NCBI GenBank assembly: GCA_934749845.1
Contig: CAKVHQ010000002.1
Coordinates: 48,962 to 112,961, forward strand
Source: an uncultured Clostridia bacterium
GTDB taxonomy: Bacteria; Bacillota; Clostridia; Christensenellales; UBA1242
Direction of reading: 5' to 3'
Length of the DNA: 64,000 nucleotides
Positions within the stretch are counted from its first letter, which is position 1; each line of letters starts with the position of its first letter. The notes under the pieces were generated by a model. It was not told where the DNA came from. It was given only the letters and a program-made list of their open reading frames with translations, and made no database searches. Made by a program: the position numbers and the translations under genes. Below are positions 27,531 through 27,586 of this stretch, piece after piece.

Positions 27531-27586
27531 GTTTGCATAGCACTGTTTTTGCTCGATTTTTCGGCATATTTTAAGTACTATGCAAA
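27531..27586. repeat. full copy of a dispersed short repeat (inverted 12-mers flanking a CGATTTTTCGGCA core)
   Basis: GTTTGCATAGCAC-TGTTTTTGCT-CGATTTTTCGGCA-TATTTTAA-GTACTATGCAAA, between the convergent recA and PBP genes. Confidence 0.75.

Follow-up and report, generated by a model that had tools for sequence, protein, structure and literature searches.

A 64,000-nucleotide stretch of DNA from an uncultured Clostridia bacterium (assembly GCA_934749845.1, contig CAKVHQ010000002.1; referred to throughout as the window) contains a dispersed and strongly over-represented 12-mer, TTTGCATAGCAC. The right-hand part of the window is the replication terminus, which is why six loci bearing the word are visible in it. 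As stated in a preliminary description of the window, exact copies of the word or its complement lie at 19116, 21316, 27532, 45492 and 45537 on the plus strand and at 48349 on the minus strand. Only 0.01 copies were expected and none of 100 shuffled sequences reached six, in line with the earlier estimate that chance occurrence was far below one. With up to one mismatch allowed, eight matches were found against 0.72 expected. The two one-mismatch copies, at 19167 and 27575, both have the sequence TTTGCATAGTAC on the minus strand; the second had been listed before, and the first, the inverted partner of the copy at 19116, had been left out. Two further positions that had been listed as one-mismatch copies, 59723 and 59735, carry TTTGCATAGTAT, which is two letters off the 12-mer. 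Across the whole assembly (1.38 Mb, 91 contigs, 35% G+C) the six exact copies in the window are the only ones. The sites and the features around them are collected in Table 1.

Table 1. Sites related to the 12-mer, components of the terminus module and other features of the window
Feature	Position	Strand	Context
Inverted pair TTTGCATAGCAC-N39-GTACTATGCAAA	19116..19178		Inside TRAM/U5-methyltransferase (RlmCD-like) open reading frame 18590-19957
Single copy	21316..21327	+	Overlaps the -35 (TTGCAT) of the TTGCAT-N17-TATAAT promoter of ftsK/spoIIIE (21376-24354)
Inverted pair TTTGCATAGCAC-N31-GTACTATGCAAA, core CGATTTTTCGGCA	27532..27586		Between convergent recA (26436-27425, +) and class A penicillin-binding protein (PBP) gene (27714-30113, -)
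Direct pair, 45 bp start to start	45492..45548	+	Inside open reading frame of a 688-aa N/T-rich lipoprotein (44587-46653, -)
Single site	48349..48360	-	70-nt spacer between spoVAD (47290-48312) and spoVAE (48382-48747), inside operon
Tandem doublet TTTGCATAGTAT x2	59723..59746	-	Adjoins the -35 of the PadR-TM promoter (TTGACA, 59714-59719, -); innermost site, 0.9 kb from dif
PadR-TM protein	57522..59666	-	PadR winged-helix head, ~480-aa acidic low-complexity tether, tail of four transmembrane (TM) segments; ABC transporter genes (54753-57464) next
Candidate dif, TATTCGCAAAA-TACAGA-TTTTGCGAATT	60650..60677		28-bp near-perfect palindrome, 11-bp arms, 6-bp centre
dif half-arm TATTCGCAAAA	61788..61798	+	21 nt upstream of xer start; same in G003, G009 and G015
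Single XerS-like tyrosine recombinase (xer)	61819..62877	+	Best NCBIfam match XerS, 184 bits, under its cut-off
spoIIGA-sigE-sigG	5077..7548	-	Sporulation sigma genes near terminus
spoIIAA-spoIIAB-sigF	43080..44581		Sporulation sigma genes near terminus
Palindrome GTCGAAAAATCGAC	12023..12036		~70 nt upstream of MinD/ParA-type gene (12107-12892)
CBASS/anti-phage-like nucleotidyltransferase	60783..61712	-	Variable slot between dif and xer
lexA	62959..63570		Firmicute-type SOS box AGAACAAATGTTTG upstream, within 62890-62958; box kept in G003

The terminus was recognised from its dif site, its recombinase gene and the base composition around them. A search for a canonical XerCD-type dif with TTATG-type arms gave no match, and the site was located by a general scan for 11-6-11 palindromes. 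In 14 genomes a single copy of the palindrome was found on the terminus contig or region, and searches of four more whole genomes also gave one copy each; none was found in G175. It adjoins xer and lies at the GC-skew flip wherever the skew is readable, the flip coinciding with dif and xer in G003, G004, G007, G009, G011 and G013-G017, and the xer gene is conserved beside the skew flip across the order. Two types of dif arm are found in the family, TATTCGYAAAA and TATGCGTAAAA. The palindrome at 60650-60677 is a candidate chromosomal dif, and the half-arm upstream of xer is a probable Xer auto-operator through which the gene would be autoregulated. In the sister species G003, represented here by one 370-kb contig (the window's genome is G000, and G002 is the other sister species), the skew changes sign at ~150 kb (plus to minus), and every good 12-mer site falls between 101 and 207 kb. 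The window is collinear with this terminus stretch, and from that collinearity the end of contig C2 of the window's genome is inferred to join the end of contig C5. The origin, with dnaA and the opposite skew flip, lies on contig C1, separate from the terminus.

The order of genes at the terminus is kept family-wide: ABC permease, ABC ATPase, PadR-TM, a YgjP-like gene, dif, a variable segment, xer and lexA. The ABC genes beyond PadR-TM encode an ABC ATPase and an ABC-2 permease. In G011 the slot between dif and xer holds two unrelated open reading frames, which suggests that the segment next to dif is a swap site. In G007, a genus without the 12-mer, an exact dif arm is embedded in each of three copies of a longer repeat, AAAAAAATCGCTCCTAAACTATGCGTAAAATAC (G007:C4 66252, 93245 and 95613; loci L091-L092). 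These copies could be promoters, remnants of an integrative mobile element exploiting Xer (IMEX) or true half-dif sites.

The functional unit of the repeated word is TTTGCATAGYAC, the reverse complement of GTACTATGCAAA. When Y was allowed at position 10, extra sites appeared on contig C5: four half-sites between spoIIIAB and spoIIIAC (C5:76673-76715), and two 20-bp palindromes of the TTTGCATAGTACTATGCAAA type at C5:92522-92557, upstream of a dacF-like gene. In total, the window's genome holds 21 strong sites (at least 16 bits). Half-sites may face head to head or tail to tail; others form direct repeats spaced by 12-45 bp or inverted pairs spaced by 7-39 bp. In an alignment of 79 sites from four genera, information content was restricted to the 12-mer and a weak T (0.55 bit) at position 13; each of the 25 positions upstream and, past the weak T, each of the 25 downstream carried less than 0.2 bit. 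Because conservation ends at the edges of the 12-mer, the body of a miniature inverted-repeat transposable element (MITE) or repetitive extragenic palindrome (REP) and a two-box sigma promoter are both excluded. A promoter for sigma F, G, E or K, which GCATA and CATAGTA might have suggested, was also rejected since no partner box lies at a fixed 14-18 bp and many copies are intragenic or between convergent genes.

The preliminary description had considered a REP/MITE-like repeat or an uptake signal, and a mobile or structural repeat of this kind is highly improbable. The inverted pairs do look like the hairpins of REP elements, or like uptake sequences that are paired after genes, and the site-bearing spacer between spoVAD and spoVAE is found in G000 and G002 only, spoVAE following within ~50 nt of spoVAD in 13 of the 20 relatives checked, G003 included. 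That distribution indicates that sites are gained and lost. Against a mobile element, homology stops at the 12-mer, the flanks of different copies are unrelated to each other, neither terminal repeats nor target duplications are present, 43 genera keep the identical word at different places, and the copies within genes belong to conserved protein sequence instead of being insertions. For an uptake signal the count is far too low: the 1.38-Mb genome has about 21 copies, and 17 of these fall in about 6% of it. The earlier phrase 'mobile or selected oligonucleotide' is thus half right: the recurrence of the same 12-mer in 43 of 58 sampled genera speaks for selection, and the lack of shared flanks speaks against mobility. 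The same two observations rule out a single recent local duplication.

Cores related to that of the recA/PBP pair were confirmed at 45513, 48329, 59756 and, as a palindrome, at 12023. The core, CGATTTTTCGGCA, is part of a mini-palindrome, CGAWWWWTCG, found at a distance of 3-11 nt from many 12-mer sites in the window's genus only; it is not a fixed partner of the 12-mer. A Spo0A box is a doubtful reading of the core, as TGNCGAA fits only two of five cores (27554 and 59756). The palindrome at 12023-12036 resembles the mini-palindrome and has no adjoining 12-mer. A scan against Rfam returned tRNAs only and no known RNA family, and a literature search for the 12-mer returned nothing but unrelated primers.

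The sites gather around dif. Of the 21 strong sites in the window's genome, 17 are no farther than ~42 kb to the left or ~36 kb to the right of it, in a span of 78 kb out of 1377 kb (p = 3e-18, a value that assumes the junction of C2 and C5); these ~17 sites fall at nine loci. In G003, 13 of 14 loci lie within 60 kb of dif (p = 4e-6), as do 8 of 11 in G011 (p = 0.003). Exact copies of the 12-mer occur in 118 of the 201 family genomes sampled, and the total of 509 matches compares with ~15 for the reversed control. All sampled members of the family retain sporulation genes. No enriched word was found in G004, G006, G013, G014 or G015, which represent other genera of the family.

The sites are also oriented. 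A site was scored as obeying a polarity rule if its top strand gave GTACTATGCAAA towards dif, and exact sites on dif-bearing contigs were counted. Two oppositely oriented groups flank the terminus in G011 (10/10 sites obeying), G058 (8/8) and G009 (6/6), together 24/24 in genera that were chosen after the data were seen. The rule was obeyed by the one site scored in G010 (1/1), by 9/14 in G152, 6/9 in G002, 3/5 in G003, 3/8 in G000 and 1/5 in G017. In G078, four minus-strand sites stand at one contig end and seven plus-strand sites at the start of the next contig. Pooled, 47 of 66 sites obeyed, against 57% expected from base composition (p = 0.013), and 35 of 44 when the window's genus was left out (p = 0.0015); related genomes are not independent, so both p-values overstate the case. 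Among one-sided intragenic sites, the sense strand was GTAC..AAA in ~29 of 36 by tally.

Such polarity is expected of the FtsK-orienting polar sequences (KOPS) or SpoIIIE recognition sequences (SRS) that tell FtsK or SpoIIIE the direction of dif: the leading-strand motif points towards dif, its density rises towards dif, and one copy lies in the ftsK/spoIIIE promoter. That the 12-mer is such a sequence is nevertheless very improbable. It is a specific 12-bp word present ~20 times per genome, whereas the known motifs are frequent 7-8-mers, and the purine-rich skewed 8-mers GGAGAAGA and AAGAGAAG are better candidates, with 94-98% skew and at least 40 copies in 862 kb. The recognition helix of the FtsK gamma domain does not co-vary with the 12-mer, and the copy in the ftsK promoter is not conserved in the sister species.

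A different account is that the sites are ordinary operators of a transcription factor whose regulon (dacF, spoIIIA, spoVA, sigG, ftsK/spoIIIE and the PadR-TM/ABC operon) is close to the terminus by chance. This is the main rival and was judged unlikely. The palindromic 20-mers would bind a dimer, and two of them stand upstream of the dacF-like gene; the four half-sites on C5 precede the spoIIIAC ribosome-binding site by 13 nt, an array stands upstream of sigG in G003, a site is fixed 3-5 nt upstream of the PadR-TM -35 in at least six genera, and 60% of site loci are intergenic, in genomes with 90% coding DNA. On the other hand, ~40% of loci are intragenic, including three direct copies in one open reading frame of G011, some sites lie between convergent genes, and four genera show a flip of orientation at dif. 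PadR-TM is the only regulator gene consistently found next to the sites, and it does not co-vary with the 12-mer.

The positions of the sites are mostly non-orthologous between genera, and the flanking genes share no common theme. The sites of G011 lie mostly where G000 and G003 have none, the PadR-TM/YgjP spacer alone being common to them; they are found in iscS, near yunB, upstream of rsgA and secDF, and in the two lineage-specific open reading frames inserted between xer and dif. G058 has a site between dnaG and sigA, and G003 has two inside topA. Together with recA and the sporulation genes, these flanking genes are functionally mixed. Sites were absent from a gene block that lies 120-190 kb from dif in G003 and present in the same block in G011, where it lies 65-90 kb from dif.

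The individual loci of the window were compared with those of the sister species, and the earlier statement that copies occur in coding, intra-operon and intergenic DNA was upheld. The pair in the methyltransferase gene keeps the reading frame (ICIAL...STMQT); G003 has it at the orthologous place, and G002 has its first half only. An in-frame insertion of the Rickettsia palindromic element type was rejected for this gene, the region being normal conserved protein that is kept in sister species. At the ftsK/spoIIIE promoter, G002 and G003 conserve only TTTGCATA and the last four letters match in G000 alone, so that this copy is perhaps partly coincidental. The direct pair in the lipoprotein gene, whose sense strand has GTGCTATGCAAA twice (SAMQS/SAMQT), is kept in both sister species.

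The recA/PBP pair, correctly described before as inverted around CGATTTTTCGGCA between convergent genes where no promoter is expected, has orthologous pairs in G002 and G003. It folds into a long hairpin with the core at its tip (-24.8 kcal/mol, z -7.4, on one strand and -24.0 kcal/mol, z -6.5, on the other). Runs of A and T flank the hairpin, which is therefore predicted to act as a bidirectional intrinsic terminator of both recA and the PBP gene. Folding clearly better than that of shuffled sequences was seen only for this pair and for the minus strand of the 19116 pair. An RNA hairpin as the general function was rejected because no such clear difference was seen for direct pairs and single sites.

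The innermost site lies 3-5 nt from the PadR-TM -35 in G000, G002, G003, G009, G011, G058 and G152, and is flipped in G017. Its position beside the -35 argues that the bound protein touches transcription there. The PadR-TM promoter itself (59680-59722, minus strand) is TTGACA-N18-TAAAAT, and its spacer contains a genus-specific palindrome, ACATATTGT-N3-ACAATATGT, that is likely a second operator distinct from the 12-mer.

Two observations concern the genes around the sites. The lipoprotein has a lipobox signal peptide, N/T-rich tracts and a Cys-rich block, and its gene is inserted antisense between sigF and spoVAC. It has no Pfam or NCBIfam match; sequence homologues were found only in G002 and G003, with a weak match in G011 (~32% over 161 aa) in the same slot beside spoVAC. 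The sporulation sigma genes of the window lie near the terminus together with spoVA, yunB and spoIVFB, mirroring the placement of spoIIA and spoVA in Bacillus subtilis.

Candidates for a protein that binds the 12-mer were sought among the genes near dif and among known terminus proteins. RTP (PF02334) gave no match above cut-off in 31 genomes, no search for Tus having been made, and RTP chains were not among the PDB matches of the winged-helix domain encoded next to dif. That domain, the head of PadR-TM, is LmrR-like (E = 1e-26 to PDB 3f8b), and its closest solved relatives are LmrR-type PadR regulators. Both the PadR-TM module and dif were located in 14 genomes, and in 12 of these the module is no more than a few kb from dif; it is 17 kb away in G015 and ~48 kb from xer in G025. 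PadR-TM is unlikely to be the binder: it occurs in 181 of the 201 family genomes with or without the 12-mer, its recognition helix is identical in motif-positive and motif-negative genera, and the motif-less genera g61, g68 and g70 have the protein, long tethers included. The FtsK gamma domain was rejected as no substitution consistently tracks the 12-mer, and there is no Xre/Cro-type gene near dif.

The remaining candidate, Xer, bears on a further alternative. XerD-specific sites (XDS) are described, in papers citing Karaboja 2021, as dif-like sequences in the terminus at which Smc-ScpAB is unloaded in B. subtilis (PMC11840125, PMC10945525). That the 12-mer marks sites of this type is improbable, and Xer is unlikely to be its binder. 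The sites do surround dif and xer, the extended dif arm AACTATTCGCAAAA has ACTAT and GCAAA in common with GTACTATGCAAA, and in G007 and G016 the few dispersed copies, all near dif, are exact dif arms. The 12-mer is nevertheless not a dif arm, there being 2 bp fewer in the middle ((AAC)TATTCGCAAAA versus GTACTATGCAAA). In addition, the xer promoter has the true arm and not the 12-mer, copies of the arm are not scattered about the terminus in motif-positive genomes, G062 carries the other dif type (TATGCGTAAAA) yet the same 12-mer, and Xer identity does not separate motif-positive from motif-negative genera.

Of the possibilities raised in the preliminary description, a family of regulator sites comes closest, a protein-binding site being the best reading of the 12-mer. 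It is rather probable that TTTGCATAGYAC/GTACTATGCAAA is the recognition site of a putative sequence-specific DNA-binding protein that marks the terminus domain. Most of the related genera have one-sided sites, the A-rich strand running 5' to 3' towards dif on both arms, so that orientation flips at dif, and density rising towards it. Bound sites would then act as terminus-specific landmarks or barriers. If so, a polar roadblock, by analogy with a Ter-type fork trap and centred on dif, has something short of an even chance of being the function. A stop or unloading signal for structural maintenance of chromosomes (SMC) condensin, by analogy with XDS or matS, is possible but has less to recommend it, and a direction signal for a DNA translocase is doubtful. 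Where a site adjoins a promoter, as at the PadR-TM gene, the bound protein probably affects transcription. In the window's genus many sites have turned into inverted pairs with CGAWWWWTCG alongside, one pair having been co-opted as the predicted recA/PBP terminator.

Several observations weigh against a terminus-marking protein. The binding protein was not found among the candidates examined (RTP, Xer, PadR-TM, FtsK gamma, Xre), and many genera of the family are without the 12-mer despite the same dif, xer and PadR-TM module. There is no evident polarity in the window's genome, where half of the sites are inverted pairs; the pair in the lipoprotein gene is the one locus to break the dif-directed polarity, and the weak polarity of the genus can be put down to that pair and to the inverted pairs. 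Orientation in G017 is opposite to the rule. Polarity is moreover inseparable from the direction of transcription, since the leading strand carries most genes; of the few sites in lagging-strand genes, about as many follow replication as follow transcription. Nor do all genomes show tight clustering: sites reach 150-180 kb from dif in G009, G058 and G152, which points to a wider domain there. Finally, several sites are placed as those of a transcription factor would be, beside a -35 or just upstream of the ribosome-binding sites of dacF, spoIIIAC and spoVAE.

The organisation of replication termination, chromosome unlinking and condensin unloading is known in few model bacteria, through Tus-Ter, RTP-Ter, MatP-matS and XerD-XDS, and we know of nothing comparable described for Clostridia. 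A 12-mer that gathers around dif, and that flips there in several genera, provides a handle for finding a terminus protein in an abundant uncultured gut lineage, the sequence and positions of its sites now being defined along with dif. In practice, the 12-mer and dif can be used to locate the terminus and to order contigs in fragmented metagenome-assembled genomes.

Among known systems, the 12-mer differs from the DNA uptake sequence (DUS) of Neisseria and the uptake signal sequence (USS) of Pasteurellaceae, which are present in hundreds to thousands of copies genome-wide. It shares with these, and with REP and MITE elements, the over-representation of a short word that sometimes forms inverted pairs after genes; unlike them it has no repeat body and clusters in the terminus region. 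Its copy number is 10 to 100 times lower than that of KOPS or SRS, and it is an AT-rich word in palindromic and inverted arrangements where those are G-rich 8-mers. XDS, as far as the description in the citing papers allows comparison, are similar in being extra specific sites scattered around dif in a Firmicute with some resemblance to the dif arm, and differ in that a single XerS-like recombinase and a palindromic dif are found here. The matS sites bound by MatP are likewise limited to the terminus domain, where a few dozen of them, both within and outside genes, become denser near dif. Their 13-mer is symmetric and has no polarity, and MatP is, to our knowledge, restricted to gamma-proteobacteria.

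The Ter sites of B. subtilis (RTP) and Escherichia coli (Tus) are also similar, being ~10-20 specific sites around the terminus, in genes and spacers, that form two oppositely oriented groups with the innermost sites close to the termination point. In addition, TerB at tus and TerI at rtp show that an innermost site can overlap a promoter. The gene beside the innermost 12-mer differs from tus and rtp in encoding a membrane-tethered PadR protein that does not track the motif, and the window's genus differs in its many symmetric pairs. No RTP homologue was found in the 31 genomes searched. The layout fits Ter, XDS or matS sites, and the tests that define each of these systems placed it in none of them. 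It is a tentative and rather doubtful proposal that the sites of these small-genome gut Clostridia belong to an undescribed terminus system: a new binder unrelated to RTP or Tus, which may act together with the membrane-tethered PadR protein encoded beside dif, would recognise one-sided 12-bp sites converging on dif and form a fork trap or a barrier to SMC or a translocase, as a third independently evolved Ter-like system.

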